DNA from: Aquificota bacterium
GTDB taxonomy: Bacteria; Thermosulfidibacterota; Thermosulfidibacteria; Thermosulfidibacterales; Thermosulfidibacteraceae
DNA: 37,499 nt
Reading direction: 5' to 3'
NCBI GenBank assembly: GCA_015494645.1
Contig: WGAU01000030.1
Location: forward strand, 1-37,499
Positions 3,118 to 35,383 of the stretch are shown one piece after another. The notes beneath the pieces are model-generated. The model ran no database searches and was not told the origin of the DNA. It was given only the letters and a program-made list of their open reading frames with translations. Position 1 is the stretch's first letter. Each line of letters opens with the position of its first letter. The position numbers and the translations under genes were made by a program.

Positions 3118-3194
3118 GGAAACTACCTCCTTTTCTATTTTTGGACTTAAATATATATTGCAAAGCAACAGCCTCAATCCTAAAAATTATCACC

Positions 3195-4496
3195 ATGAGG
3201 ATAGCTTTTTACACAATAGGCTGCAAGCTCAACCAGTTTGAAACAGAATTTATGAAGGAGCAGTTTGAGGAGGCAGGCTGGGAAACAGTTCCTTTCAAAG
3301 AAAAAGCAGACGTTTACATCGTTAACACATGCACGGTAACAGGACAGGCAGACTCAAAATCCCGCCAGACCATAAGACAAGCCCTTAAAAGAAATCCAAA
3401 TGCCCTTGTGGTTGCCGTGGGATGCTACTCCCAAGTGGCCAAAGAAGAGCTTCTCAAGACAGGCGCCTCACTGGTGCTTGGAAATCCTGAAAAGGGAAAG
3501 ATAGTAGAACTTGTGGAACAAGCCTTGAAAGAACAAAATCTCCCCAGAGTGCATGTTTCCAACATAAACAACAGCTTCTTTCCCATGACCATAGAGAATT
3601 TTTCCGGGCACTCCCGTGCCTTTATCAAAGTACAGGACGGATGCAACAGAAGATGCCCCTACTGCATAGTCTGGAAAGCAAGAGGACCTTCCAGAAGCGC
3701 TCCCCTTGAATTGGTAATCAAAGAGGCCCAGAAACTCGCCGACGCTGGATTTGAAGAGATCGTTCTAACGGGAACCCACTTAGGATGTTACGGTGAGGAA
3801 AAGGGCTTGGATCTTGTGGATCTACTTGAAAGACTCGTTGAGATTGATTCCCTGAAAAAAATCAGACTGTCCTCCCTTGAACCAACGGAAATCACTCCGC
3901 AGCTTATAGAGTTCATGAAAGAAAACAGTAAAATAGCCCGCCACCTGCACATACCTTTACAGAGCGCAAGCAACAGAATACTCAGGCTCATGAACAGACC
4001 CTACACAAAAGAGGAATTTGAAGATCTCGTAATGAAGCTTGCTGAAGCCTTGCCCGATGTGGGCATAGGAGTAGATGTTATAGTGGGCTTTCCCACAGAG
4101 GAAGAGGAGGATTTTGAAGAAACCTACAGGCTTATAGAAAAGCTGCCCATATACTACATGCACATTTTTCCTTATTCTCCACGGCCAAACACACCTGCGG
4201 CTTACATGAGACCTCAGGTCAGGCCAGACATAAAGAGAAGAAGATGGGAAATTATGAACCAGCTAAAAGATGCAAAAAAGAAATACTTTATAGAAAGATT
4301 TATAGGCAAAGAGCTTGAAGGGGTGATAGAAAACAGGCCCGCAAGTGAAAAGGGATACTGGAGTGCCCTCACAGAAAACTATATTCCTCTCGTAGTAAAA
4401 GGCCAGTTTCCCCAGTTAGCAGGTAAAGTGAAAAGGTTCAAGCTAATCCAAAGATTGGATCACCGAGCAGAAGCGTTACTTCTAACTTGGAGATAG
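3195..4496 (+). CDS. Radical SAM methylthiotransferase of the MiaB/MtaB/RimO family (MtaB-like)
   Basis: N-terminus MRIAFYTIGCKLNQFETEF..NTCTVTG (MTTase domain). It has a CxxxCxxC radical SAM core (GCNRRCPYC) and a C-terminal TRAM-like tail. I prefer the conserved N-terminal ATG at 3195 over the track's TTG at 3141. Confidence 0.8.
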   Translation: MRIAFYTIGCKLNQFETEFMKEQFEEAGWETVPFKEKADVYIVNTCTVTGQADSKSRQTIRQALKRNPNALVVAVGCYSQVAKEELLKTGASLVLGNPEKGKIVELVEQALKEQNLPRVHVSNINNSFFPMTIENFSGHSRAFIKVQDGCNRRCPYCIVWKARGPSRSAPLELVIKEAQKLADAGFEEIVLTGTHLGCYGEEKGLDLVDLLERLVEIDSLKKIRLSSLEPTEITPQLIEFMKENSKIARHLHIPLQSASNRILRLMNRPYTKEEFEDLVMKLAEALPDVGIGVDVIVGFPTEEEEDFEETYRLIEKLPIYYMHIFPYSPRPNTPAAYMRPQVRPDIKRRRWEIMNQLKDAKKKYFIERFIGKELEGVIENRPASEKGYWSALTENYIPLVVKGQFPQLAGKVKRFKLIQRLDHRAEALLLTWR

Positions 4497-8472: not shown

Positions 8473-9435
8473 TCACAAAAGTTTTTCAAGGTCCTGCCTC
8501 TCAGGGAGCTTCAATCCCAACTTTTCAATGCACTGCCTCACATCTTCGGGCAGCGGCGAAAACACCGAGATTCTCTCGCTTCTGACGGGGTGGTCAAAAT
8601 CCAGATAGGCAGCGTGAAGCGCCTGTCTATGTATGAGATCAAGCCCTTTCCTACCGTATATAGCGTCTCCCAAGACAGGACAGCCTAAATGGTGCATGTG
8701 AACCCTGATCTGGTGAGTTCTCCCGGTGTAGATCCTCACCAAAAGCACACTAAATCTGTCGCTGGAATCAAAAACCACATACTTTGTAATGGCCTCTCTC
8801 CCCCCCTCAACCACCGCCATTTTTTTCCTGTCCACAGGATGCCTCCCAATGGGAGCATCCACCGTTCCCGAAAGAAAAGGCGGCTTCCTCCAACACACCG
8901 TAACGTAAATCTTTTTTACCTTCTTGTCTTGAAACATCCGGCTCATGATCATATGAGCCTCTTCCGTTTTCGCCACTACCATAAGGCCTGAGGTGTCCTT
9001 ATCAAGTCTGTGAACTATCCCAGGCCGTTCTCTACCTCCCAAAGGGGAGAGAACTGGAAAACGGGAGATCAACACGTTAGCCAAGGTATCCTGAGCATGT
9101 CCAGCCGCAGGATGCACCGGAATTCCAGCAGGCTTCTCAATAACAGCAAGATGCTCATCTTCAAAGTACACTTTTATATCCAGATCCCACGGCACCAGCT
9201 CCAAAGGCTCTGGTTCTGGAATAAACACCTCTACCTCAGCTCCAGCAAAAACTTTCACCCCAGCCTTTCTGGGAATTCCACCGTTTAAAAGAATATGTCC
9301 TTCGTCCAAAAGCTTTTTTATTCTGCTACGGGAAAGATCAAGGTGGGTTTCAAGGAATCTGTCAAGGCGAGTGCCAGCGAATTCATCGGAAACCCTTAGA
9401 ACCTTCCGTATACCTCTGTTCCGCAGGAGGGACAT
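8473..9435 (-). CDS. rluD: RluA/RluD-family 23S rRNA pseudouridine synthase
   Basis: An S4 domain is followed by the catalytic HRLDKDTSGLMVVAKT motif. Confidence 0.85.
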   Translation of the reverse strand: MSLLRNRGIRKVLRVSDEFAGTRLDRFLETHLDLSRSRIKKLLDEGHILLNGGIPRKAGVKVFAGAEVEVFIPEPEPLELVPWDLDIKVYFEDEHLAVIEKPAGIPVHPAAGHAQDTLANVLISRFPVLSPLGGRERPGIVHRLDKDTSGLMVVAKTEEAHMIMSRMFQDKKVKKIYVTVCWRKPPFLSGTVDAPIGRHPVDRKKMAVVEGGREAITKYVVFDSSDRFSVLLVRIYTGRTHQIRVHMHHLGCPVLGDAIYGRKGLDLIHRQALHAAYLDFDHPVRSERISVFSPLPEDVRQCIEKLGLKLPERQDLEKLL

Positions 9436-10397
9436 CTGCTCCCTTCAAGGTAAGAGAAGGTCTCAAAAAAGCCTGAACGCTTAATAAGCAACCTACCACA
9501 GGACGGGCAATAGGTGCTGTTGAGCCTGTCATCAGGCACATTTCCCACGTAAACGAACTTCATCCCTTTGGATTCCGCCAAGAATTTGGCACGGATCAGG
9601 GTATCAACAGGAGTTGGGGGCAAGCTTGTCAACTCGTAGTGTGGGTAAAACCTTGTGAAGTGCAGGGGAATATCCAAGCCAACGCTGGCAACAAAGTCGG
9701 TCAGCTCTTCAAGCTCCTCTAAGGAATCATTGTATCCAGGAATGATCAAGTTGGTCACCTCCACATGAACGCCAGATTCATAGGCAAGCTCAATCGTTTC
9801 CATGGTTGCTCTTAAAGAGCCTCCCCTGCAAACATCCCTGTAAAACTCCTCCCTTATGGATTTAAGATCAATATTCATGGCATCCACATAGGGAATCAGA
9901 TCCTCAAGAGGCTTACGGTTTATCTGGCCATTGGTAACAAGAACAATAGGCAATCCTTTAGGCTTAGCTACCTTTGCCACATCCAATAAGTACTCGTACC
10001 ATATGAGAGGCTCGGTGTAGGTAAAACACACACCTTTAGAAGCGTATCTTTTGGCAACCTCCACAAGCTCTTCTGGAGATACGTATTTTGTAGGACAGGA
10101 GTACTGAGAGATTGAGTAGTTTTGACAGTGAAGACAACCAAGATTGCATCCATTGCAAGCTACAGAGATGATATAACTTCCTGGATAAAAGTGGTACAGA
10201 GGTTTTTTCTCTATAGGATCGTTGCTTATGGTAACAAGCTCACCATAGCCTGTGGCAACAAGCTTTCCTCCTTGGTTGCTTCTGATTCTGCAGAAACCAG
10301 AATTGCCATCAGCTATAACACATTCCCTCGGGCATAGCCTACATCTGACCGTGGACTTGTCCAAGGGCTCCCAGTACTTGGCCTCAGGCTTCATCAC
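9396..10397 (-). CDS. amrS: AmmeMemoRadiSam system radical SAM enzyme
   Basis: It has [10 protein letters not shown] radical SAM cysteines and an N-terminal [18 protein letters not shown] Cys cluster, giving a PflA-like fold. It is adjacent to an AMMECR1 gene. Confidence 0.8.
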
Positions 10398-10909
10398 TTG
10401 TATCTGTTCACCGTGAACCTATAGACCTTTATAGGCTCCCCGGGTGAGATACCCGCCTTAGCCATGGCTATAGCCAACTGTTGCTCAACCGTTTCCACCC
10501 CTTCCAGATCGGGCAGAAGCAATCCCCTCCTGAACCCGGACTCCACAATGACACCGTACTTTTTGGGGTCAAGCTGAGAAAGATCAGTAACAGGCTCAGG
10601 AGTGGAAAGAACATCCACAGATATATCCAGCTCGCCAAGCTCATCTTCCCTCACCGGAGGGAACCTCGGATCCTCTGTAGCTGCAGCAATGGCGTTTCTT
10701 ATAATTTCCTGAGCCACATTTTCACAGACGGGAAGAAAAGTGCCTATGCATCCCCTCAGCTCTCCCCTTTTTTTAAGTGAAACAAAGGTTCCTGCTCTCT
10801 GCTTCATTTCCGGGATCATAAGCTCCTCTGGAGGGGGATCTATCACCCTTCCGCTCCTTATGTACTCTTCAATGGCCTTTCTTGCCAATTGAACCAAAGG
10901 ATGAGCCAT
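10394..10909 (-). CDS. amrA: AMMECR1-domain protein
   Basis: 171 aa. The motif [10 protein letters not shown]...EDPRFPPV is the AMMECR1 signature. Its stop overlaps the amrS start by 4 nt. Confidence 0.85.
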
Positions 10910-13431: not shown

Positions 13432-14685
13432 TGCTTCAAATTTGGGATGGGTAAGCTTTTTAATAATCATATAGTTAGAAAGGTTTAGGTATTTTTCTTT
13501 TTTGCGCTTTAATACAAGCCAAAACCGATCATCCTTTATTTCTCCGACGGACTCTATCTTTTTAGCTATTCTACCAGTGTAAAGAGAAGCACCGTATATT
13601 TTTTCGTCAAGTATATACACCGGTATATCCATCATCATTCCTTTAGCCAAAGGAGCAAAGGATCTTTTGCGAGAATACCACGGGAAAAGAACAAGCACCG
13701 CCGCTGTATATATGACAAACACAAAAACGGACACTTTCTTTATCAAGTCTTCATTATAAAAAACCTCGGAAAATATAACAGCCCACGCCGGAAAGACGCA
13801 AAGTATGTAATGGGGTAATTTTGACTTGGAAAATGAGAAAAAAACCGTGGGAAACAGTATCCAAAGAAAGATGAATCCCCAAAAGGTTTTATCCTCAAAA
13901 AAAAGAGAAAGAATGTTTTTAAATCTGAAAAACAAAATAAATGTCCATGGGGAAAGGCCTACCAAGGTTACCAGAGCAAAATAGTAAAAAGGTTGCTCCC
14001 TTTTGAAAACTCCAGTGGTATATCTCAACACATTCTCCTTCCAGAAAAAGTTGTAACAGTAGCCAGGAGTTTTCGCTTCAAGAAGAAGAAATACTGGAAC
14101 CACAATGATCAGAAACAAAATCATGCCCTTGAAGATATCTTTTAGAGATACTTTCCCTATCCAAACAAGGGGCAAAGAAACAGCAGCCGGTATAACCACC
14201 CCCACAGGCCCCTTGGTCAAAAAGGCCAAAGAGGCAAAGAAAGATGCCCATAAGATTTTGTTCTTCCACACAAAGTAAAGGGTGAGAAATATGAAAAGGG
14301 ATAGAAGCATCTCCATACGGGCAATCCTTGCGTAGGCAAAGGTTATGAGAAAGGACAGGAAATAAAAAGCGGCCAGCTCACCCTGCCACAGAAACAACAC
14401 AAAAGCTAACGCCAAAGCAGAAAAGGCCGAAATAATTCTTAAAGAAAGCTCCCACGAACCAAAAATCTTGTAGCTGACAGCCGCAAGCCAGTAGTAAAGC
14501 GGAGGCTTTTCATATCTGACTCTGCCGTTTATCCTCGGTGGAAGCCAGCTTCCCTCTTCAACGATCTCCCTAACAATCTCGCCGTTACGGGCTTCATCAG
14601 GCTCCACAAGGGGATAACCAGCAAGGTTGACAAAAAGAGGCAGAATAAACAGCAGAAAGAGACAGGTAAAGAGGCTATGCCTCAT
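13399..14685 (-). CDS. GT39/ArnT-family (PMT-like) membrane glycosyltransferase
   Basis: The first periplasmic loop has the [14 protein letters not shown] motif (DEAR..EI, ArnT/PMT family). It has 10 or more TM helices. The ATG at 14685 (MRHSLF) is preferred over the track's TTG at 14703. Confidence 0.7.
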
Positions 14686-15010
14686 CAGATTCGTTGAGGG
14701 CAACTATCCTTTTAAGGATTATAAAGTCCTGAAGAGGAATCTCCTTAAATTCAACGGCGAAGCCATCCTCTGCCTTTCTGACCACCTCTGCTTTGAGGGT
14801 AACCTCCTCCACCACATTGTCCGATTCCATCAGGTGAAGCTTCAACTCGCAAAGCGCTCCCAAAGGCGGTTTTTTTTCACACTCTATGAAGGCTCCCTTG
14901 ACACTTATGTCTCTGGTTCTTAGATTTGTAGCCTGAAAATCCCGTCCCCTCACGGAAGCCTTAACCCTGAACTTCACCCTCTTGAACCTTCTTCTCTCCC
15001 TTCCCGTCAT
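14675..15010 (-). CDS. Stand-alone PilZ-domain protein, a c-di-GMP receptor candidate
   Basis: 111 aa. The RRFKR...DISVKGAF motifs fit the RxxxR and D/NxSxxG signatures. Its ATG lies 3 nt after the cheR stop. Confidence 0.75.
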
Positions 15011-15013
15011 GGC

Positions 15014-15799
15014 TCACACCCTCTTATAAACTATGACACCATCCATAACCTCTCTTTTGTAAGGAACCACCAGTCCTAAAAGAGTTTCTGTCTTGGATAT
15101 GAAAAGATAGCCTCCAGACTTGTGTATCTGCGCCAGATTATTGAGAGCCTCTGTACGCTTTTTTGTGTCAAAATATATGAGAAGATTCCTACAAAAAATA
15201 AAATCAAAAATACCCAAACTCTTTAAAAAGGACACATCAAAAACATTGCCCACATAATATTTAACCTTCAGCTTCAGCTCGGTTTTTACTTTATAAGCCC
15301 CGTTGTACTCCTCAAAGTACTTCCTCAAAAGAGCAGGAGGAACCCTCATCACAGACCGGCGGGAGTATATTCCCTTCCTCGCTATATCAATGGCCCTTTT
15401 GTCAACATCCACTCCCACAACGTCAAACCTAAAGGTGCTCCCCATAGACTCTAAAAGCTCCATAACTATACTCAAAGGCTCCTCACCAGTGGAACAGGGA
15501 ATGCTCAAGATCCTTGCTTTCAAAAGCCTTTCCCTTTTGATAAGTTTTGGCAGAAGGGAGATATGCTCTTTTTCTCTGAAAAAGTAGGTTTCGTTAACCG
15601 TTATCACTGATATGAAATCTTCAAAAAAGCGTTGATCTTTAAGTCTTCTCAGAAGATCCTGTTCTGTAAGGTTGTTCCTTAGCAGGAAAAGATCCACCTT
15701 AGAAGCTAATAACCTCATGTTAGACTTATCTGCCACTATGCCCAACCTGTGATATATCATATCAGAAACCGTTCTTAAGGTTTCGGTGCTTACTGCCAT
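15014..15799 (-). CDS. cheR: CheR-type protein-glutamate O-methyltransferase
   Basis: 261 aa. It has an N-terminal helical CheR_N region and a SAM-binding domain. An AAGGAAAGG SD is present. Confidence 0.8.
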
Positions 15800-15995
15800 A
15801 GCCCCTTTCCTTCAATCTCTCTCTTAACGCTTTTTGCCATCTCTTAGCCCATTCAAAACGCTTAGACAATAGCAAAAACGCCAAAAGGAAAAAGGGAATC
15901 CCTGGTAAAATGGGTAGAATTGCCCCTATTACTCCCAAACCAAAAAGGACTAAGGCTACAACAATTAGAAGAATAGCTTCAAGAGACCTTTTCAA
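15762..15995 (-). CDS. Small DUF454 (YbaN-like) inner-membrane protein
   Basis: [27 protein letters not shown] matches the YbaN core. The start is TTG, with a GAGGGAAAGGA SD upstream. It overlaps both neighbours. Confidence 0.5.
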
Positions 15996-16890
15996 CGGTC
16001 ATCCTTTCCCTCAGCCTACAGAAGGCACAGGGCGGATACGTGGTAGGATACCCACAGGAAGGACACTCCACAAGCTTCGGTTTCTCTTCATCCACAAAGA
16101 GCTTGTCTTTGACCTTTAAAAACTCCCTGTAAAACCTTATCTTCGTTCCGGGAGAGTTGTACTCAATGGTATTCAAGGCCCTTTTGTAAACAAGAGTGGT
16201 TGCACCCTTAGAATAAGGACACTCATCCGAAAGGAAATTTATTCCTGTAATAAAGGCGTAAACAGCCGTCTCTCTTTCGGTAAGCTCACAAAGTGGTTTA
16301 ACTTTTCTCACAAACTTTCCTTCCTTCGGCAAAACCGGACCCTGTCTGGCCAAATACCCAATACGCCATCCCAAAAGATTGGAAAACAGCACAGCCGTTT
16401 CGTCGTTAAGATTGTGCCCTGTGGCCAACACGTCAAAGCCATTCTCATAGGCGTATTTGTTCATTATATAGCGTTTAACCATACCACAGGCAGCACAAAT
16501 GGTTCTGGTTTCTCTTTGTTTAACATCGTCTATGGAAAAGCCGTATTCTTTCTGAAGATCAAAGACCTCAAGGGGATAACCCCTCTCCTCAGCAAAGCTT
16601 TCCACTATGCCCCTTGCCTTCTGGAAGTGGTTGTTCTCCATTATACCCAAGTCTATGAACAGAGCCGTAACGTTGTAGCCAAGCCTCTTGAGAACGTCCC
16701 ACAGAACCAAGCTGTCTTTGCCACCGGACACAGCCACAAGAACCTTAGAATCCTTGTCAAACATTCTGTACTTCCTCACCACCTCTTTGACTCGCTTGAG
16801 GCAAAATTCCACAATATGTTCATGGCAAAGAGCAATGCCGAAGGACCTGACCCTTATAACAGCTTCCTTTTTACAGAGCTTACACCTCAT
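15979..16890 (-). CDS. ttuA: TtuA/NcsA-type tRNA 2-thiolation PP-loop ATPase (Fe-S dependent)
   Basis: It has an N-terminal Zn finger (CKLCKK...CHEH), the PP-loop SGGKDS, cluster cysteines (CAACG, ECPYS) and a C-terminal Zn finger (CPSCG...CAFC). Confidence 0.8.
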
Positions 16891-17081
16891 CCCCGCGACA
16901 CCACCTCGTGAATTTTTATCTCATCACCATCCATAAGCCATTTATCTTCAGTTATGGGCTTTCCATCCTTAAGCACAACCACATCTTCAGGATTTATGTG
17001 CAGATTGAGCAACAGCCTTTCCAGCTTCACCCTCCTCTCATCAACTTCAAAGATCCTATCCCTAAAAATCACTTTTATCAT
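16887..17081 (-). CDS. ThiS/MoaD-fold small protein (TtuB-like sulfur-carrier candidate) ending in -SRG
   Basis: 64 aa. The pattern MIKVIF...VVLKDGKPI...[13 protein letters not shown] fits the ThiS profile. It has a strong GGTGAGGAGG SD. Its TGA overlaps the ttuA ATG (ATGA). Confidence 0.65.
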
Positions 17082-17991
17082 AACCCCTCCTCACCTTGGC
17101 TCCCTGAAAGGTATCAAGCTCTTCCAAGCGCTTCTTTATACAGTTTATAACCTCCGACTTCCTCAAGCACCAAACTGGAGCCACTAATCTATCCGCAGGC
17201 GCCTCTCCAGTCAACCTTTGAACTACAATATCAGATCTAAGATGCTCAAGAAATGCAACACACACATTAACATACTCATCCATTGTGAAAAGGAATAGCT
17301 CACCTTTGTTGTACATATCCTCGAGGGGAGTGTTCTTCAACACATGGAGACTGTGGATCTTAACTCCATCCACCGGTAGAGCCGATAGAAAACGGGCTGT
17401 TTCCACCATATCATCAAGATCTTCCCCTGGCAGACCGAGAATAACATGGGTACCCACAAGCACACCACGCCTTTTTTTTATCCTCAGAACCGCATCCACA
17501 AAGTGAGAAACTCCATGGCCTCTGTTTATAAGCTTCAATGTCCTGTAATGAGCCGACTGAAGTCCAACCTCCACCCACACCTCGTAAGCTTTTGCAAAGG
17601 ATTCCAGAAGATCCAGAACCTCTTCAGGCAAAAGATCGGGTCTTGTTCCCACCATCAGTCCAACTATGCGGGGATCAATTAATGCTCTCCTGTAAAGCTC
17701 CTCCAACCTTTCAACAGGGGCGTAGGTATTGGAAAAAGCCTGGAAGTAAACCATAAAAAGCTTGGCTTTGTATCTTTTCTCTGCGAATTCTATGCCCCTT
17801 CTTATCTGTTCCTCTATAGGAACATACGACGGAATGACCCCAGATCCTGTGTAATCACAGTAGATACACCCTCCCGGACCGATGCCGTTGATCCTGTGGG
17901 GACATCCCAAACCCAAGTTTACAGGTATCCTCTGAACTCTGACTCCGTACTTTCCCTTAAGATAAGCGTTGAAGGAGTAGTACCTATCCAT
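17062..17991 (-). CDS. TIGR01212-family (YhcC-like) radical SAM protein
   Basis: The N-terminal CPHR...GGCIYCD cluster is present, and the architecture resembles E. coli YhcC. Confidence 0.7.
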
Positions 17992-18820
17992 AGCGGGAAG
18001 AGAGGCTTAAGAGAAGCATAACCTCCCTCAAGATGGAAGCGCCCACCACAGCAGAATTTCCCGAAGGATCCCTTTCTGGACAGAGTTCCACAACATCTGC
18101 CCCTACAAGGTCAAGCCCCTTTAGAGATGCCAAAAAGTTCACAAGTTCCCTGTAGGAAACACCGCCCGGCTCCGGCGTTCCCACACCGGGACAGAAGGCT
18201 GGATCCAAAACATCCACATCCAAAGAGAGATACACCGGCCTATCGGACACAAGCTTCTTAATGTCATCCACACACGGCAAACTAAAAGGATGGAAGAAAA
18301 GGAATTTTTCCCTACAGTAACCAAATTCCTCCCTAAGGCCCGATCGCACTCCTACCTGACACACATCTACACCCAATTCCCTAACCCTTCTCATAACCGT
18401 GGCGTGGGAGAGCCTTTCCCCAAGATAAGTACCCCGCGCATCGGTGTGGGCATCAATATGTAAAACCACAAGGTTACTGTAAGATCCCGCGTAAGCTTCA
18501 ACAGCCGCAAGGGAAAGAAGGTGCTCTCCTCCGATACTAAGAACCTTTCTTCCCTCGCCCAAAAGCTTCTCAATCTCCTTCTTTATAAGCACCAGTCCCT
18601 TTTCTCTGTTGCCTATGGGAAGCTCAAGATCTCCAAGATCCCCTATGGATTCCTCCTCTATGTCCATATTTAAGTATGGACTGTAGGTTTCTATCCCATC
18701 GGAAACCTTTCTCACCTCAACAGGAGCGAACCTCGTGCCTGGTCTAAAGCTAACCGTTTCCTCAAAGGGAACCCCCAATATCACAACCTTCCCATCAGCC
18801 TTGGTTCCCAGAAACCTCAT
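17984..18820 (-). CDS. speB: Agmatinase (ureohydrolase family)
   Basis: The Mn-binding motifs of the arginase/agmatinase family are present: SIGGEH, DAHTD and SLDVDVLDP. Confidence 0.85.
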
Positions 18821-20048
18821 CTTCCCTCTCCACTTTTATCTTCCTTATACGCCTCCTCAAGGTATCCTCCACAGTTATTCTCCAGCCTTTACCGTAGCAA
18901 ACGCTCTCCCCTTTGAAAGGGACCCTGCCGAAGATGTGCATAACAAAACCACCGGCGGTATCCACATCCAAATCTTCAGGAGGCTCCTCTCCCAGAAGTC
19001 CAAGAAAATCTTCCAAAGGACACAATGCATCCACAAGGTAGGTCCCATCTCCCAAAGACTCTATCATTTCCCTTTCCTCGTCGTATTCGTCCCGTATTTC
19101 TCCCACAAGCTCTTCAAGAATGTCCTCCAAGGTAACAAGCCCCTCAACGGCTCCGTATTCGTTCACCACAATGGCCATGTCAATTCTGTTCTGCTGAAAC
19201 TCCCTCAACAGCTCCTGTACCGATTTTGTTTCAGGCACAAAATAGCAAGGTCTTATAAGATCTCTAAGGGCTTTTTCCTTTAACCCTTTAAACACAGGTA
19301 AAACATCTGTAATCTTTATATAACCTATGATATTATCCCTTTCCCCCTCATAAACGGGGATCTTAGAGTATCTGTGCTCTTTTACGAGAGTTTTTAACTT
19401 CTCAGGAGAGATGGATACCTCCACCATAAAGATGTCTGGTTCTGGAACCATTATCTCCCGCACTTGAAGCTCAGTAAACTCAAAGACTCTATATATCATT
19501 CTCCTCTCCTTCTCCTCCAGCTCTCCCCTGCTTTTGGCCTCATCCACGATAACCTTGAAGTCTTCCTCTTTAATTGCCACATCTTCCTTCCCAAAGACTA
19601 CCGTTACAAGATGACTTGCTCCCTCAAGCACCAGCCGCAAAGGAGCAAAAAACGCAGAGAGAAACCACAAAAAGGGAGAGGCTAAATAGGCCCATATACG
19701 ATTGTACCTAACCGCCACCACTTTGGGCAGGAGCTCCCCGTAGATCAGTAGGAAGAAGGTGGTTACAAAAACGGAAATCCCCACCCACTCTTCTCCAAAG
19801 GCATCCATAAATAAAGATGCAGACAGAGCCGAGATGGCCACGTTCACTATTTCGTTTCCCAAAAGCACCGTGGTGAGAAGCCTTTCTCTGTTGCGTAGAA
19901 GGGAAAGCATGATCCTTGAAAAGATGGTATTATCCCTGTCAAGGCTCTTAACTGCCACATCGTCAATAGAAAAGAAAGCTGTCTCAGATCCGGAAAAAAA
20001 GGCGGAAAGGTTGAAAAGCACGAAGAGGGCAATGATCTTAGCCCACAA
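18795..20048 (-). CDS. DUF21-CBS-CorC_HlyC family transporter (TlyC/CNNM-like)
   Basis: It has an N-terminal DUF21 TM domain, tandem CBS domains and a C-terminal CorC/HlyC domain. The start is TTG, with a GGGGGAG SD. Confidence 0.8.
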
Positions 20049-21372
20049 TGATCTCCCCCTCTGGATACCTTATCCTCTGGGTCTCGGCATCCTCCGCCAT
20101 GGCCACCACAGCGGTAAGGGGACCCACCCTTCCAATGAGCATAATAAGGGAAATGATGAGCTTTGAAACAGGGTGAAGAGAAGGAGTTATGCCTGTGCTC
20201 AGTCCAACCGTTCCAAAGGCGGAAACTACTTCAAAAGCCACCTTGATCAAAGACTGTTTCTCTATCAGCGAAACCACAAAAGTACCTAAACAGACCAAAA
20301 GCAAAGCCAGAAAACCAATGGCCACAGACCTGTGTATGATCTCATCGGAGATTCTGCGCTTGAAGATCACCGCATCTCTCTTGTTACGCACTATGGCTAC
20401 TACACTCAGTAAGATTACCAAAAAAGTGGAAGTCTTTATGCCCCCGCCGGTACCTCCCGGAGACGCACCGATAAACATAAGAATCATCAGAAAGAACCAC
20501 GTGGTCTCTTTAAGAGCGCTTATATCCACGGTGTTGAATCCTGCCGTTCTGGGAGTCACCGACTGAAAGAGGCTGGCCAAGATCTTCCCTTTAAAAGAAA
20601 GGTGAGAAAGCACATTGTTGCTCTCAAGGCCGTAAATCACCACGGTTCCAAGCAAAATCAAGACTGAAGTCATGAAAAGAACCACTCTGGTGTGAAAGGC
20701 CAATACGTAACGCTTGCCCTGCCGTTTGCTCAAAAAATACCTGTAAAGATCGTAAAGCACGGGAAATCCTATGCCTCCAGAAACTATGAGGAAACAAACC
20801 GTCAAGTTAACTACAACGGAGCTTGCAAATCTCGTAAGACTGTCGGAATAGAGGGAAAAGCCCGCATTGCAAAAAGCAGAAATGGAATGAAAGAAGGCCG
20901 AATAAACAGCACTTTCCCAGGACATTCCTCCTGCCAAAAAAGATACAGTCAAAAGCAAAAAGCCAAAGGCTTCTATAACAAAAGTGAAGAGGAATATGTG
21001 GACAAGAAGGCTTCCTAAGGTATCCATATCGTAAAAATTCAACGCATCCTGAAGGATAAGCTTCCCTCTCAAGGACATCCTCACGCCAAAAGCCACGGCG
21101 AAAAAGGCAGACAGGGTCATTATACCCAAGCCCCCAGCCTGTATGAGAAAGAGAACCACAAGCTGACCGAAATGGGTAAGGAAACTGCCCGTATCCACCA
21201 CCACAAGACCCGTTACACAGGTAGCTGAGGTGGCGGTGAAAAGGGCATCCACAAAAGACAAACCCTTCCCATCCACCGTAGCAATGGGAAGCATTAGCAA
21301 AAAGGTTCCAAAGAGTATGGCAAGGACAAAACTACCTATTATGATCCTTGACGGAGATAGACTACCCTCCAT
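20038..21372 (-). CDS. trkH: TrkH/KtrB-family K+ uptake membrane protein
   Basis: 444 aa and polytopic. It carries GLG-type selectivity filter motifs (QAGGLGIM). Confidence 0.85.
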
Positions 21373-21829
21373 TCTGCTCCTTCACCAGCTTCTTAAGAAC
21401 CTCCCAGAAATCGGATATATCCCTGAACTGCCTGTAAACTGAAGCGAACCTCACATAGGCAACCTCATCCACCTCCTTTATAAGCTCCATCACCCTCTCA
21501 CCTATTAAACTTGTGGGAACCTCCCTTTCCCCCAAATTGAGAAGATAACGCTCCACCTCGTCAACTATGCCTTCTTGCCTCTCCACGCTTACAGGCCTCT
21601 TCTCAAACGCCTTCCTTATCCCCGCCAAAAGCTTATCCCTGTTGTAAGGCTCCCTCCTACCGTCCTTCTTAACAACCATAGGCATGGTGTCATCTATGCG
21701 CTCAAAGGTGGTAAATCTTCTACCACAGGTCATACACTCCCTTCTCCTGCGTATGGAAAATCCATCCCTGCCCGTTCTGGTCTCCACTACCTTGGTATCA
21801 CCGGAAAGACAAAAGGGGCACTTCATCAC
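21362..21829 (-). CDS. nrdR: Transcriptional repressor NrdR
   Basis: The Zn ribbon is MKCPFC...[10 protein letters not shown]. An ATP-cone domain follows. Confidence 0.9.
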
Positions 21830-22269
21830 TTCACCTTGACCAGCTCCACCCCCGCCTCTTCAAGCATTTGGAGGGAAAGCTCGTCGGGATAGCCCTTCCT
21901 GTAATAGATGACCCTAACCCCAGCATTGATAAGCATTTTAGAACAAATCACGCAGGGGAAGGTAGTGGTGTAAATAGCAGCTCCTTTCACACTGACTCCG
22001 TGCAGGGCAGCCTGTATAATGGCATTCTGCTCTGCATGCAATCCCCTGCAAAGTTCGTGTCTCTGGCCCGAAGGGACTTTTAGCCGCTCCCTGAGACACC
22101 CAGTTTCTGAACAGTGGGTTATACCAGCAGGAGGGCCATTGTAGCCAGTAGCCAAGATCCTTTTATCCTTGACCAGAACCGCCCCCACCTTACGCCTAAG
22201 GCAGGTGGAGCGAGATGAGACAAGCTCCGCTATGTCAAGGAAATACTTATCCCAAGGAGGCCTTTCCAT
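21826..22269 (-). CDS. dCMP deaminase (ComEB-like)
   Basis: The cytidine/deoxycytidylate deaminase zinc motifs HAEQNAI and PCVICS are present. Confidence 0.85.
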
Positions 22270-23550
22270 CTACTCCTTTCCCAAGGCCTTCCTGTACTGC
22301 TTGAGAAGATCCGGATAGAGAGGAAATCTCTCACACAGGGACTTAACCTTTTCTTTAACCTCTTTGCGCACCTCTGGCTTATCTATGTTTTTGAGAACGT
22401 AAGATATGAGATCGCCTATCTCCTCCATTTCTCCCTCGCCCATGCCACGAGTGGTCAAAGCCGGAGTTCCTATGCGAATTCCACTGGTAACGGTAGGTTT
22501 CTCAGGATCAAAAGGAATCATATTCTTATTTACCGTTATACCAGCCTCTTCCAAAGCCTTCTCAGCCACATTACCTGTAATGCCTATAGGCCTAAGATCC
22601 ACAAGCATGAGATGGTTGTCTGTGCCGCCTGAAACTATCCTCAAGCCGTGCTTGACAAGTCTGTTGGCAAGAACCTTTGCGTTCTTAACTATCTGCCTTT
22701 GATACTCCTTAAACTCTTCAGTAAGAGCCTCCTTCAACGCCACTGCCTTAGCAGCGATGACATGCATCAAAGGGCCACCCTGAATACCGGGAAAGACCGT
22801 CTTGTCTATATCTTTTGCGAACTCTTCTTTGCACATAATCAGACCGCCTCTGGGTCCCCTGAGGGTTTTGTGGGTAGTGGTGGTGACAAACTCACAGTAA
22901 GGAACGGGAGATGGATGGATTCCCGCTGCCACAAGACCAGCTATGTGGGCAATGTCAGCTATAACACACGCTCCCACCTCATCGGCTATTTTTCTGAAGG
23001 CTTCAAAATCTATAACCCTCGGATAGGCACTTGCCCCAACCACTATAAGCTTGGGCTTGTGCTCCTTGGCCAAAGCCCTAACCTGATCGTAATCTATAGT
23101 CTCAGTGTCCCTTCTAACACCGTAAAAGACCACGTTGTACAGCTTTCCGGAAAAGTTCACCTTGGCTCCATGGGAAAGGTGTCCACCATGGGCAAGGTCC
23201 ATAGCAAGTATGGTATCTCCAGGCTTCAACACTGCCATATAAACGGCCATGTTGGCTTGGGTACCTGAATGGGGCTGAACGTTCACATGTTCCGCTCCAA
23301 AAAGCTCTTTAGCCCTCTCAATAGCCAACCTCTCTGCAACATCAACGAACTCGCACCCCCCATAATAACGCTTTCCAGGATACCCCTCCGCATACTTGTT
23401 GGTCATTACACAGCCCTGAGCCTCCATTACAGCAGTGCTTGCAAAATTTTCGCTGGCAATCATCTCAAGCTTGTACTCCTGCCTCTCCAACTCCCCTAAA
23501 ATTGCCTCCGCTATTTCTGGATCTACCTCCCAAACCCTAAGATGCTTCAT
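22270..23550 (-). CDS. glyA: Serine hydroxymethyltransferase
   Basis: 426 aa. The PLP-lysine region [14 protein letters not shown] is present. Confidence 0.95.
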
Positions 23551-24010
23551 CTAAGCCTCCCTCCTCACAAACGGCTTTCTCTATCTCCTCAAGCTTTGAA
23601 AGCCTTCTTGCATGCCTTCCCCCCTCAAATTTTTCGGTAAGCCAAATTTTGACAATGGCTTCCGCTTTATCAGGGGAAAGCACCCTCCCACCCATACACA
23701 AGACATTAGAATCGTTGTGAAGACGGCTCATCCTGGCGGTGTACTCGTCATGGCACAATGTGGCTCTAATATTGGGAAACCTATTGGCAACTATGCTCAT
23801 GCCTATCCCCGTACCACAACAGAGGATCCCCCTATCTACCTCTCCCCTCGCAACGGCCCTCGCCACCTTGGCAGCGTACTCCGGATAGTCAACAGACTCT
23901 TCTGAGTGGGTGCCAAAGTCCAAGACCTCGTGGCCCAAACTTTGAAGCAGACTCTTAACAAACTCTTTGAGTCTGTAGCCCCCGTGATCAGAAGCCAGTG
24001 CTATTCTCAA
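23537..24010 (-). CDS. rpiB: Ribose-5-phosphate isomerase B
   Basis: The motifs [10 protein letters not shown]...CGTGIGMSI fit RpiB/LacAB. The start is TTG, with a GAGGAGG SD. The TTG overlaps the upstream TGA (TTGA). Confidence 0.85.
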
Positions 24011-24342
24011 ATGGCCTCCTCGCCCCTTTCTCCTGTTCTTATCCTAACAGCATCAAGCACATCCATTACCAACAGTGTCTCACTTCCAGCTTCCCTACCG
24101 GCACACTTCAAGAAAGCATCCACAACTTCATCCACCGCATCATCATGAACCACCGTCTCAACAAACAGTCGGGGCAAAAAGTCAGAAGAAATACCGAGCT
24201 CCTTGAGAGACGGATCCCCTCCCTCCACAAAATCGGAATACTTCACCTCTGTAACCACTATACCCCTAATACCTATCTCTTCCAACCTTTCCTTAAGCTC
24301 ATCCAGCTTAAAGGGCCTTATTACAGCCGATATCTTCTTCAT
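24007..24342 (-). CDS. P-II (GlnB)-like signal-transduction protein with divergent T- and B-loops
   Basis: 111 aa. Compared with GlnB, the N-terminus ([32 protein letters not shown]) and C-terminus ([12 protein letters not shown]) are clearly homologous. The T-loop and the B-loop GDGKIF are replaced by [16 protein letters not shown] and REAGSETLL. Its ATG overlaps the rex TGA. Confidence 0.75.
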
Positions 24343-24980
24343 CAGTACATCTTGGTGTTGACGAAAAAGGTCAAAACTTCCAACTCAATTCCCAAATCAA
24401 TATGTCTCACTACTACCCCCTTAGGCACGCTAAGCCTCACCGGTGCGAAATTCAGAATCCCCTTTATACCGGACTTCACCAAGGCGTCAACCACCCTCTG
24501 TGCCTCGGAAAAATGTACAGCCACTATAGCTATCTTTATCTTCTTCTTACGGATAACTTCTTCCATCATAGACGCATGGTACAGCTCACACCCCTCAGGA
24601 ACGGCTTTCTTTCTCTCCTCGTCTATCACCTTGTCAAAAGCAACACTTATCTTGAACCCATGCCGCTTGAATCCCTGATAGGAAAGAAGAGCTCTGCCAA
24701 GGTTGCCCACTCCCACAAGGGCCACCTCCCACTCCCGATCCAAGCCCATTATACGCTTCAGATCCTCTTTAAGATCCTTTACGTAGTACCCTACCCCCCT
24801 GGTTCCGAACTCTCCAAAGTAAGCCAGATCTTTCCTAATCTGGGCGGGATTTATACCGCATTTCTTTCCCAGCTCCGCAGAAGAGATAACCTCTACTCCT
24901 TCCTCTTCCAGCTCAGAAAGACAACGCAGGTAAAGGGAAAGCCTTGATATGGTAACCTCAGGAATCTTCCACTTTCTCAT
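24342..24980 (-). CDS. rex: Redox-sensing transcriptional repressor Rex
   Basis: It has a winged-helix N-terminus and a Rossmann domain with [13 protein letters not shown] at 24980 is the preferred start (GGTGAGGG SD). The track's GTG is at 24989. Confidence 0.85.
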
Positions 24981-32371: not shown

Positions 32372-33373
32372 CTACCTCACCACCACCCTTCCACTACCCT
32401 TAACTACGTATCCTACACAGGGATACCTGTACAGTCCAGCCCTATCCTCGGGAACGGCCACGAGAAGTCCTCCGGAAGTCTGCGGATCAAAAAGGACCAT
32501 CTCCCAATCTCCCACATTCCTTTCAAACACCACCTTCTGGGAAAAGTATTCCCTATTCCTGTATGCTCCTGCGGGAATAAGTCCCATGGAAGCATACTCA
32601 AAGGCCTCTTCAATAACAGGGATTTTCTCCACCTCCACCACAATATCAAACTCACCGGAAGAGCACATCTCAAGGGCATGGCCGATAAAGCCAAATCCTG
32701 TAACATCTGTTGCGGCAACAGCTCCCACCTCAAGCATCTTCAACGAAGCCTCTTTATTTAATTTCCTCATAGACTCAACAGCTTTCTCCACCGCCTCTTC
32801 TGAAGCAAGACCGGCCTTTATGGCAGTGGTAACTATCCCAACCCCTAGGGGCTTTGTTAGATAGAGCAAAGCACCTTCTTCAAGGGTACTGTTTCTCACC
32901 ACCCTTTCCGGATGAACCCTGCCCACAACACACAATCCGTATTTCGGCTCCTCATCATCTACACTGTGCCCTCCAACAAGGAATGCCCCTGCTTCCTTAA
33001 CCTTCCTCAAACCTCCCACCACAACGCCCCTTGCAACCTCCGCAGGAAAAGCACAGGGAAGACAGAGGATATTCAGGGCAAACCAAGGGTCTCCCCCCAT
33101 GGCGTAAACATCACTTAAAGCGTTGGCAGCGGCTATTTCGCCGAAAAGCTCCGGATCATCCACCACAGGAGTGATAAAATCAACAGTAGCTACAAGGGCA
33201 AGGTCATCCGCTACCTTTACAACTGCCGCATCCTCAAAACCACCAAGTCCGGCAAGTACCTCCTCACCTAAAGGTAAAGCCAACCCCTCCAGAACTTCTG
33301 CAAGGTCCGCCGGACCTATCTTGGCCCCTCAGCCAGAGGCCTTAACCATCTGGGTAAGCTTTATTTCCTTCAT
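32372..33373 (-). CDS. selD: Selenide, water dikinase (selenophosphate synthetase), a selenoprotein with an in-frame UGA
   Basis: The track's ORF (TTG at 33283) is truncated. Reading the same frame upstream gives [30 protein letters not shown]..., which matches the SelD N-terminus (E. coli ..IRLTQYSHGAGCGCKISP..). The TGA falls at the catalytic Cys/Sec position. ATG at 33371-33373 overlaps the yedF TGA. PurM-like domains follow. Confidence 0.85.
33304..33316 (-). other. SECIS-like hairpin 3' of the selD UGA
   Basis: The mRNA reads GGUCC-GGC-GGACC starting 12 nt after the UGA. A possible outer pairing CAAG/CUUG extends it. This is the position expected for a bacterial SECIS. Confidence 0.5.
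33329..33331 (-). other. Selenocysteine (UGA) codon of selD
   Basis: This in-frame TGA is codon 15 of the extended selD reading frame. It aligns with the active-site Cys/Sec of SelD. Confidence 0.8.
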
Positions 33374-33948
33374 ATCCTCACCACGGAAGCAGATCCCAAC
33401 AGGCTCTCAACGGTATCGTACATATTGGTCACACTTCCCACCACAAGCTTATCCTTCAAACCAAAGTACTCCAAACATGTGCCACAGGATAATATCTCTA
33501 CTCCTTCTCTCTCAAGTTCCTTCAAAACATCCGCCACTTTAGAGCCTTCGGTGGTAAGATAGACACCGCGATTTATAAAGATAAGTTTTTTAGGCTTTAC
33601 TGAAGACTCTCTCAAAGTCGCTATAAACGCCCTTATTAGAATCTGGCCAAGCTCCCTATCCTCACCCATGGAATCTGACAAAAAGATCATGACCTTATCG
33701 GATGTTGTTTTGTCTTCAACCTGAGGTAGAGAACAGGCGTATCCCTTGGTGATAATAAGGCGATACCCCCACTCCTCCTCTTTAATTTCAAGCGAGCACC
33801 CCTGCTTCTGAGCAAACCTCGCCACATTCTCCTTAGAAGCGGGATTGTCAACAAGCACCTCTACAATGCCCTCTTCAATGCCCTCAAGGGCCTCTTTGGT
33901 CATGAGAACCGGCTTGGGACAGGCACATCCTCTCGCATCAACAACCAT
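33370..33948 (-). CDS. yedF: Selenium metabolism protein YedF (TusA-like N-terminus plus DsrE-like C-terminus)
   Basis: CACPKP is the TusA-type Cys motif. The C-terminal DsrE/DsrF-like domain gives the architecture of the selD-associated YedF family. ATG at 33948 with a GGAGG SD is preferred over the track's GTG at 33954. Confidence 0.75.
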
Positions 33949-35107
33949 TTCCACCCTCCGCTATGCTTTTCACAGCATCAACGGCAAGCTTCACATCCTC
34001 TTCACTGTTGAAGGGTCCCAAAGAAAACCTAACAGTACCTTTGGGATATGTACCATAGGCCTTGTGCGCCCACGGAGCACAGTGAAGCCCAGGCCTTGAA
34101 GCGATGCCAAACTCCCTGTCAAGGACAGAAGAAACCTGGGCAGCATCCATCCCTTCTATTACGAAAGATACCACAGGCACCCGCTTATCAATCCTCTCCA
34201 GATCGGCAAAAACCCTCACTTTAGATATACCTTTAAGTCCCTCAACAAGAGACTCAAAAAGTCCCATCTCATGTTTTCTAATCTTCTCCACTCCCTTCTC
34301 AATTACCCACTCAATACCAGCTTGAAGACCTGCAAGGCCATGCACATTCAATGTCCCACTCTCAAACCTGTCCGGCAAGACATCGGGTTGCTCATCAAGT
34401 TCTGAATAACTCCCCGTACCTCCCCTGATCATAGGAGCGAGTTGATACGCAGCAGGGATGAACAGACCGCCTACCCCCTGAGGACCAAGAAGCCCCTTAT
34501 GTCCGGTGAAGACAACAAAGACATTGTCAAAATCTCCTACATCAAAGGGATAGGCGCCCAAGGTCTGGGTTGCATCAACCACCACAGGGACTTTGACCTT
34601 ACGAGCCACCTCCTCAAAAGGCGTAACCACGCCAAATACATTGCTGGCATGATTTATGCAAATAACCCTCGTCTCCGAATCCACGAGGGAAAGGATGCTT
34701 TTCGGCTCAACATAGCCCGAAGGAGAAGTCCCAGCGATACGAAGCTCTATTCCATTTCTCTTGCACCAGTACTTCAGGGGCCTTGCCACTGCATTGTGCT
34801 CCAACGCAGTGGCCACAACATTTCCCCCGCTAACCTCAGAAAGCAATCCGTAAATGGCAAAATTTGCCGCATAGGTAGCGTTCATGGTGAAGATTACACG
34901 TTCAAGATGATCCACATTGAGAAGCTCAGCGATAAGTTTTCTGCACCTATAGACAATTCTTGCCGCCTCTACAGAAAGTATGTGTCCGGAACGCCCCGGA
35001 TTTCCCCCAATACCTTTCCCGTATTCCAAAAGTTTCTCCCAAACACTTTCCGGTTTGGGGAAGGAAGTAGCAGCGTTGTCAAGGTAGCAAACGTTCAAAG
35101 CCCTCAT
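33938..35107 (-). CDS. Class-V aminotransferase: cysteine desulfurase / selenocysteine lyase-like, selD-associated type
   Basis: 389 aa. It has the PLP-lysine region [12 protein letters not shown] and a C-terminal active-site region [10 protein letters not shown]. Confidence 0.8.
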
Positions 35108-35303
35108 TGTAAACAGACTCCACTTTCAAACCTTTCAAAACTTCCATTACCCTTTCAAGAGGCTCCTCTGTCTTTATGCACAGACCACAGCCAGCAGATA
35201 TACTCTTGGGAACAGGCATAAGCTCACAAGATAACCCACACTCCAACATCCTCTCTTCCGCTTTAAGGGCCTCAGTGGTACTATGAAACACTACATAGAT
35301 CAT
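35079..35303 (-). CDS. DUF3343-family small protein (putative Se/S carrier)
   Basis: The sequence [47 protein letters not shown] fits the DUF3343 pattern of an FHST N-terminus and a C-G-L cysteine. ATG at 35303 is preferred over the track's TTG at 35369. Confidence 0.65.
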
Positions 35304-35383
35304 CTGAAGAATGAAATACTCAACCGACAACTGATTTTCAAATTGAATAGACAAAAACAGAAGGATCAAAGAATAGAAAAAAG

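Follow-up and report, generated by a model that had tools for sequence, protein, structure and literature searches.

The closest described counterparts of the system treated here are the TtuB-TtuA pair of Thermus thermophilus (structures 5GHA and 5ZTB) and SAMP2 of Pyrococcus furiosus and Haloferax volcanii (PF1061), a small ThiS-type ubiquitin-like protein (Ubl) tied to tRNA thiolation. In the T. thermophilus pair, the C-terminal carboxylate or thiocarboxylate of the carrier TtuB binds the unique iron of the TtuA cluster, with Lys137 aiding desulfurisation (PMC7138817). Here we analyse a ttuB-ttuA locus in a 37,499-nt contig (WGAU01000030.1) of an Aquificota bacterium of the family Thermosulfidibacteraceae, the window being this entire contig. 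T. thermophilus TtuB terminates in ...AISGG and SAMP2 also ends in Gly-Gly (GG), whereas the 64-aa carrier of the window ends in ...VVSRG, i.e. in Arg-Gly. We propose that the unit most likely encodes a carrier and a sulfurtransferase that together make 2-thioribothymidine (m5s2U54) in thermophile tRNA, and that Arg at the penultimate (-2) position is most likely a lineage-wide natural variant in a carrier family for which, as judged from sequence, the terminal Gly and the Ser at position -3 alone would be indispensable.

The ttuA gene (15979..16890, minus strand) encodes a 303-aa protein that is predicted to be an orthologue of the T. thermophilus and Pyrococcus horikoshii enzymes, that is, a [4Fe-4S]- and ATP-dependent tRNA 2-thiouridine synthetase. 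This orthology is supported by a score of 300 bits to T. thermophilus TtuA (5GHA_A/5ZTB), as opposed to 93 bits only to the U34-specific NcsA of Methanococcus maripaludis (6SCY); the score to P. horikoshii PH0300 is 285 bits. A TtuA_LIM_N domain (PF22082, 29.3 bits) and a PP-loop domain are present, and in an alignment of 14 bacterial relatives (A2) the PP-loop motif SGGKDS (residues 55-60), the cluster ligands C132, C135 and C224 together with K139, and the zinc-finger cysteines C3, C6 and C22 as well as C276, C279, C288 and C291 are all invariant. The N-terminal zinc-finger ligand H25 is read from the sequence. As C132, C135, C224 and K139 align with C130, C133, C222 and K137 of T. thermophilus, every residue matching the cluster and Lys137 set of that enzyme is present, and the two systems share the gene pair, the PP-loop, the three cluster cysteines, the Lys137 equivalent and both zinc fingers. 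They differ at the T. thermophilus Gly168 position, which is Ser170 in the window, and in that no ttuC/ttuD-type gene lies near ttuBA in the contig. The protein falls under the equivalog cut-off of the Pyrococcus-type NCBIfam model NF049949 (325.5 bits versus 450), a shortfall that we read as lineage distance, the model being lineage-specific. From these comparisons we infer U54 as the target (m5U54 to m5s2U54).

The carrier gene (16887..17081, minus strand; MIKVIF...HEVVSRG) lies directly upstream, its stop codon overlapping the ttuA start in an ATGA (16887..16890). A Shine-Dalgarno region, GGTGAGGAGGGGTT (17082..17095), is situated within the 3' end of the preceding radical SAM gene (17062..17991, minus strand), with GGAGG about 5 nt ahead of the carrier ATG, and the radical SAM and carrier genes overlap by 20 nt. 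The three minus-strand reading frames, the overlap at 17062..17081, the TGA/ATG overlap and the strong Shine-Dalgarno sequence, all reported in an earlier note on this DNA, are thus borne out. The same -4 ATGA overlap recurs in three Aquificales loci (L001, L002, L003), in two contigs of the same species as the window (L056, L057) and in many pairs with a GG-type carrier, and in most of about 90 carrier-containing loci the carrier gene sits directly upstream of ttuA; ttuB is hence predicted to be translationally coupled to ttuA. A promoter and terminator scan of 14500..24500 returned counts at or below shuffle expectation and therefore gives no indication that ttuBA is transcribed as a unit of its own.

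Sequence and model agree in identifying the 64-aa protein, which is also present in a public protein collection, as a predicted TtuB/SAMP2-family carrier. It passes the Pfam SAMP2 model PF21965 barely (28.6 bits against a cut-off of 27), and the profile of its family matches P. furiosus SAMP2 (5LDA_B, 8e-16), its best profile match, and T. thermophilus TtuB (5ZTB_E, 1e-12). The AF2 model (pLDDT 92.6) adopts a beta-grasp fold and is matched best by Foldseek to TtuB chains from the TtuA-TtuB complex (5GHA_H, TM 0.87, rmsd 1.3 A). Together with the orthology of TtuA, these profile and fold matches uphold the previous assignment as the TtuB-like partner of TtuA. Beta-grasp fold, Ser(-3) and terminal Gly are shared with T. 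thermophilus TtuB, and the Gly-Gly end by which TtuB/SAMP2 carriers are recognised is replaced by Arg-Gly. The final codons read TCG CGG GGA TGA, so that Gly64 stands directly before the stop codon and provides a free C-terminal carboxylate. SAMP2 differs in that it also modifies proteins and is processed by JAMM proteases.

One might suspect that an error in sequencing or assembly turned GGG into CGG, or that the gene is decaying, as one base separates the two codons and the contig comes from a metagenome-assembled genome. However, the single Gly recurs in independent assemblies, with SRG, SRG and SQG at the C-termini of three close homologues, and among orthologues with 58-98% identity the ends are SRG or SQG, so that comparison of orthologue C-termini does not restore a GG end and the single glycine described in the earlier note stands. 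Specifically, SRG is found in both same-species contigs and in L059, EVVSRG in the three Aquificales loci, where the carrier is 58-70% identical, and QVTSRG in a Desulfovibrionales locus (L010). The window and L059 use CGG for this Arg, whereas L001-L003 and L010 use AGA or AGG; since the codons differ between loci, it is Arg at the protein level that is kept, not a miscalled GGG. With the trait moreover common to 54 family members, the error or decay reading is for practical purposes ruled out. Among 55 genome loci, compared for the sequence upstream of ttuA, the Chloroflexota, proteobacterial and Methanomicrobiales carriers end in SGG or HGG.

To place the Arg-Gly end in the family, carrier tails were pooled from an exhaustive HMMER search, a profile search and 80 metagenomic ttuA loci, yielding 230 distinct tails. 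GG ends account for 109 of these and GG followed by 1 to about 25 extra residues for another 62, while 54 end in a single Gly preceded by another residue (x-Gly): R in 35, Q and K in 5 each, S and T in 3 each, W in 2 and A in 1. Four tails lack Gly, and one (P0172, ...SGGRVG) carries a GG extension that itself ends in Gly. As the queries were x-Gly proteins, the sample is biased toward such ends, and 54/230 is not a population estimate. Judged from these tails, the -2 position can be taken to tolerate R, Q, K, S, T, A and W. In the carrier alignments (A1, A3), by comparison, no column other than Ser(-3) and the terminal Gly is invariant. The x-Gly carriers form at least 12 clusters at 55% identity, an archaeal group ending ..PVSSSG is 91% identical to a sister ending ..PVSSGG, and R, Q, K and W swap at -2 among close relatives, which argues that the second Gly has been replaced repeatedly. 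Many of the x-Gly carriers are without a name in databases.

The tails also differ in what follows the last Gly. Residues after the terminal Gly are found in 0/54 x-Gly carriers versus 62/171 GG carriers, and among the bacterial GG-type carriers beside ttuA (loci L066-L144) about half have 1-12 or more post-GG residues, e.g. SGGAR and SGGSGAVEGARA, implying C-terminal processing before use. Two TtuB-like reading frames, L087 (~1100-1325; ...TTAER) and P0015 (...TIAER), overlap ttuA in an ATGA, have neither the terminal Gly nor Ser(-3), and as they stand could not, judged from these tails, be thiocarboxylated; a relative, L072 (~1290-1504), ends in ...TVGTG. In two Thermosulfidibacter takaii-like metagenome contigs (L061:8001-9976 and L062), ttuB and ttuA are separated by an inserted nucleotidyltransferase/HEPN pair that is probably a toxin-antitoxin module. 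The end of ttuB overlaps with the first gene of the insert, and the carrier there terminates in ...VLSWG as compared to ...VLSRG in insertion-free close relatives.

In the ThiS, MoaD, Urm1 and ubiquitin systems, the reactive group is the carboxylate of the last Gly. Furthermore, the eukaryotic Ubls Atg8 (...FG), Atg12 (...WG/FG) and Ufm1 (...VG) carry a bulky residue ahead of a single terminal Gly and are activated by an E1. They resemble the window carrier in the beta-grasp fold and in E1 adenylation of one terminal Gly, an analogy suggesting that an E1 can accept an x-Gly end, but differ in not being sulfur carriers, in their distant sequences and in their dedicated E1s (Atg7, Uba5). The earlier statement that Gly-Gly is required was therefore too strong, in view of the 54 x-Gly tails, the reactivity of the terminal Gly carboxylate and these single-Gly Ubls. 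In agreement, Ubls have been described as ending in, "more rarely, a single glycine" (PMC12645042). Older comparative work emphasises only the conserved terminal Gly (PMC1779556).

On these grounds we infer that the Arg-Gly carrier is adenylated and thiocarboxylated, and we consider it probable that it is a working thiocarboxylate TtuB in which -2 is simply not restricted to Gly. In the proposed mechanism, the Gly64 carboxylate would be adenylated by an E1-like enzyme (MoeB/ThiF/TtuC) whose gene lies elsewhere in the genome, and the adenylate would then be converted to the thiocarboxylate. The carrier tail would enter TtuA, where the thiocarboxylate would bind the free iron of the [4Fe-4S] cluster, whose ligands are C132, C135 and C224. 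The sulfur would be released with the help of K139 and replace the adenylated O2 of U54. The use of an E1 by an x-Gly carrier receives associative support from a Thermoprotei-type metagenome contig (L146:3479-7208), where a ttuA-like gene (minus strand), a MoeB/ThiF E1 (258 bits to MoeB), MoaD ending in PSGG, MoaE, a TtuB-like carrier ending in SSSG and a second ttuA/ncsA-like gene are clustered, i.e. where carriers of apparent molybdenum/tungsten-cofactor and tRNA-thiolation type lie beside one E1.

Several observations weigh against this reading. Among the coding-strand reading frames of the 37.5-kb contig, the rest of the genome being outside the search, there is no E1 (ThiF/MoeB), JAMM or rhodanese gene; it is the missing E1 that counts here. 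SRG carriers do not adjoin ttuA in L063 and L145, neither an adjacent ttuA nor a nearby E1 is present in the contexts of the SRG carriers P0085 and P0081, and a KG carrier (P0113) is likewise not adjacent to ttuA. Moreover, the TtuA proteins of Thermotoga maritima and P. horikoshii reportedly work with free sulfide in vitro, so that a carrier would not be strictly needed, and as the ...AER relatives adjoin ttuA without a terminal Gly, retention of the gene alone is no proof of carrier chemistry. The GG motif has also been called functionally essential, and used as a search criterion for Ubls, in a survey of archaeal Ubls (PMC2948915), and mutants of the penultimate Gly of plant Cnx7 show weaker partner binding (PMC5694649).

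Some of these points would equally fit a protein that has lost carrier chemistry and is retained to assist TtuA in a non-catalytic way, e.g. by using its terminal carboxylate to cap or stabilise the oxygen-labile [4Fe-4S] cluster, or by regulating access, with free sulfide, abundant in hydrothermal habitats, as the sulfur source. The TtuA cluster becomes more stable when TtuB-COOH is bound (PMC7138817), a supply of S0 makes the Ubls of Thermococcus kodakarensis partly dispensable (PMC11323500), relatives ending in ...TTAER or ...TIAER still overlap ttuA, and no E1 is encoded in the contig. Against this, the terminal Gly and Ser(-3) stay invariant throughout the 54 x-Gly carriers even though identity over the remaining sequence falls to about 40%, a pattern expected if the C-terminal chemistry is retained. 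In addition, tail decay of the ...AER type is seen in none of the x-Gly carriers, and one of these is clustered with an E1 in L146. A non-catalytic role is hence, in our estimate, unlikely.

Returning to a functional thiocarboxylate carrier, the question arises whether the residue at -2 is merely tolerated or selected. The Arg, or Gln or Lys, could act as a specificity switch that insulates the carrier from other partners that depend on GG, for instance JAMM proteases, protein conjugation or molybdopterin (MPT) synthase, or that fits a pocket of TtuA or the E1 co-adapted to it. There is a strong preference at -2 for long polar or basic residues (R, Q and K in 35, 5 and 5 of the 54), and the absence of post-Gly extensions sets the x-Gly carriers apart from the GG type. 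The TtuA column that best separates enzymes paired with x-Gly carriers from those paired with GG carriers is that of Ser170: the T. thermophilus Gly168 equivalent is Ser in 9/10 x-Gly-paired TtuA, from three lineages, versus 4/69 GG-paired ones. This correlation is confounded by phylogeny and is a lead only. The additional presence of S, T, A and W at -2, and the exchange of R, Q, K and W between close relatives, point to relaxed rather than directed selection, and in L146 a single E1 accompanies both a GG and an SG carrier. A switch of this kind thus appears quite unlikely. The broader proposal that the -2 residue of TtuA-linked carriers forms an evolvable specificity code, with Arg/Gln/Lys-Gly carriers dedicated to tRNA thiolation and co-evolved with TtuA (e.g. 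via Ser at the Gly168 position) and/or the E1, is likewise one to which we give only a small chance.

The gene overlapping the carrier at its upstream side encodes a 309-aa protein with Radical_SAM and Radical_SAM_C domains (PF04055, 67.7 bits; PF16199, 108.6 bits) that scores 358.6 bits against the TIGR01212 model, well above its equivalog cut-off of 180. The function of this family, given as unknown in the earlier note, has since been clarified: its NCBIfam name is "tRNA modification radical SAM protein MnmL/YtqA", and Bacillus subtilis MnmL and Escherichia coli YhcC convert cmnm5s2U34 to nm5s2U34 (bioRxiv 10.1101/2023.12.21.572861; 10.64898/2026.05.18.725915). We therefore predict an MnmL/YhcC-type protein that performs this conversion in tRNA, a neighbour of the ttuBA unit and not a part of it, and the gene can be re-annotated as mnmL. 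The authors of the 2023 MnmL study warn that subgroups may not be isofunctional, and the clustering they report is with mnmM and MnmC2, not with TtuA (bioRxiv 10.1101/2023.12.21.572861); the window gene is clustered with neither mnmM nor mnmC2.

A one-pathway operon of mnmL, ttuB and ttuA, in which, for instance, MnmL would act on xm5s2U34 that owes its 2-thio group to the TtuA-like enzyme, is suggested by the physical overlap of the three genes and by the shared type of substrate, as both enzymes act on tRNA uridines and that of MnmL is a 2-thiolated U34. However, the adjacency and overlap of mnmL and ttuB are seen only in the same-species contigs L056 and L057. No mnmL lies beside ttuBA within 4 kb on each side in L002 and L003, within 8 kb on each side in L059-L062, or within the 1.5-kb flanks of about 80 metagenomic ttuA loci found by a scan with the TtuA alignment; the gene immediately upstream of the carrier is RlmN in L002, SecA in L003 and BacA in L059-L062, and the sole TIGR01212 candidate in another ttuA locus is a weak radical SAM match (27% identical) downstream in L020. 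In L059 the gene block of the window (P-II, rpiB, SHMT, deaminase, NrdR, TrkH, CNNM, agmatinase) is retained with ttuBA at its opposite end. The enzyme is also far nearer to the U54-specific TtuA (300 bits) than to the U34-specific NcsA (93 bits), and MnmL clustering with TtuA is missing from the 2023 survey. A common pathway is accordingly very improbable. From P-II to PMT_2, most of the co-directional neighbours in the window share 4-38 nt with each other regardless of function, and with the adjacency confined to one species, compaction explains the mnmL-ttuB overlap. Of the two explanations previously offered for the neighbourhood, a functional link or compaction, the former is refuted by the criterion of conserved adjacency set in that note and the latter agrees with the packed co-directional genes; comparison of the loci thus indicates gene compaction and not a conserved functional link.

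Further genes of the contig complete the picture. A 77-aa reading frame (15762..15995, minus strand) shares 17 nt with the 3' end of ttuA and matches the N-terminal half only of DUF454/YbaN (41 bits, profile positions 2-47 of 115); its counterpart is not called as a gene in L056. About 15 kb from ttuBA, at 32372..35369 (minus strand), lies a sulfur/selenium-trafficking cluster comprising an AIR-synthase-related protein (SelD/ThiL-like), a 194-aa TusA-domain protein, a class-V aminotransferase (cysteine desulfurase-like) and a PF11823 "Se/S carrier". Other RNA-modification-type genes, at 9396..10909 (minus strand), 3141..4496 (plus strand) and 8473..9435 (minus strand), are a radical SAM gene beside an AMMECR1 protein, a MiaB/RimO-type methylthiotransferase (UPF0004 and Radical_SAM) and an RluA-family pseudouridine synthase.

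In conclusion, the comparisons presented here indicate that the Arg-Gly carrier is real and recurrent, yet consistent with accepted chemistry. In the literature searched we found no earlier description of x-Gly prokaryotic sulfur carriers, which is not proof of novelty. If the -2 residue were indeed a specificity code, it would be a prokaryotic counterpart of the discrimination at residue 72, which separates ubiquitin from NEDD8 at their E1s. Reviews and comparative-genomic screens take the C-terminal Gly-Gly as the defining, essential mark of prokaryotic Ubl sulfur carriers; as a sizeable and recurrent TtuA-linked set ends in x-Gly, mostly Arg-Gly, screens and annotation rules based on GG miss real carriers. 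The minimal chemical need appears to be one terminal Gly together with Ser(-3), and the tail channels of the E1 and of TtuA would have to fit a large charged side chain. The close SSSG/SSGG and SRG/SQG/SWG relatives may hence serve as a natural mutagenesis series on the second Gly, bearing on sulfur transfer versus protein conjugation.

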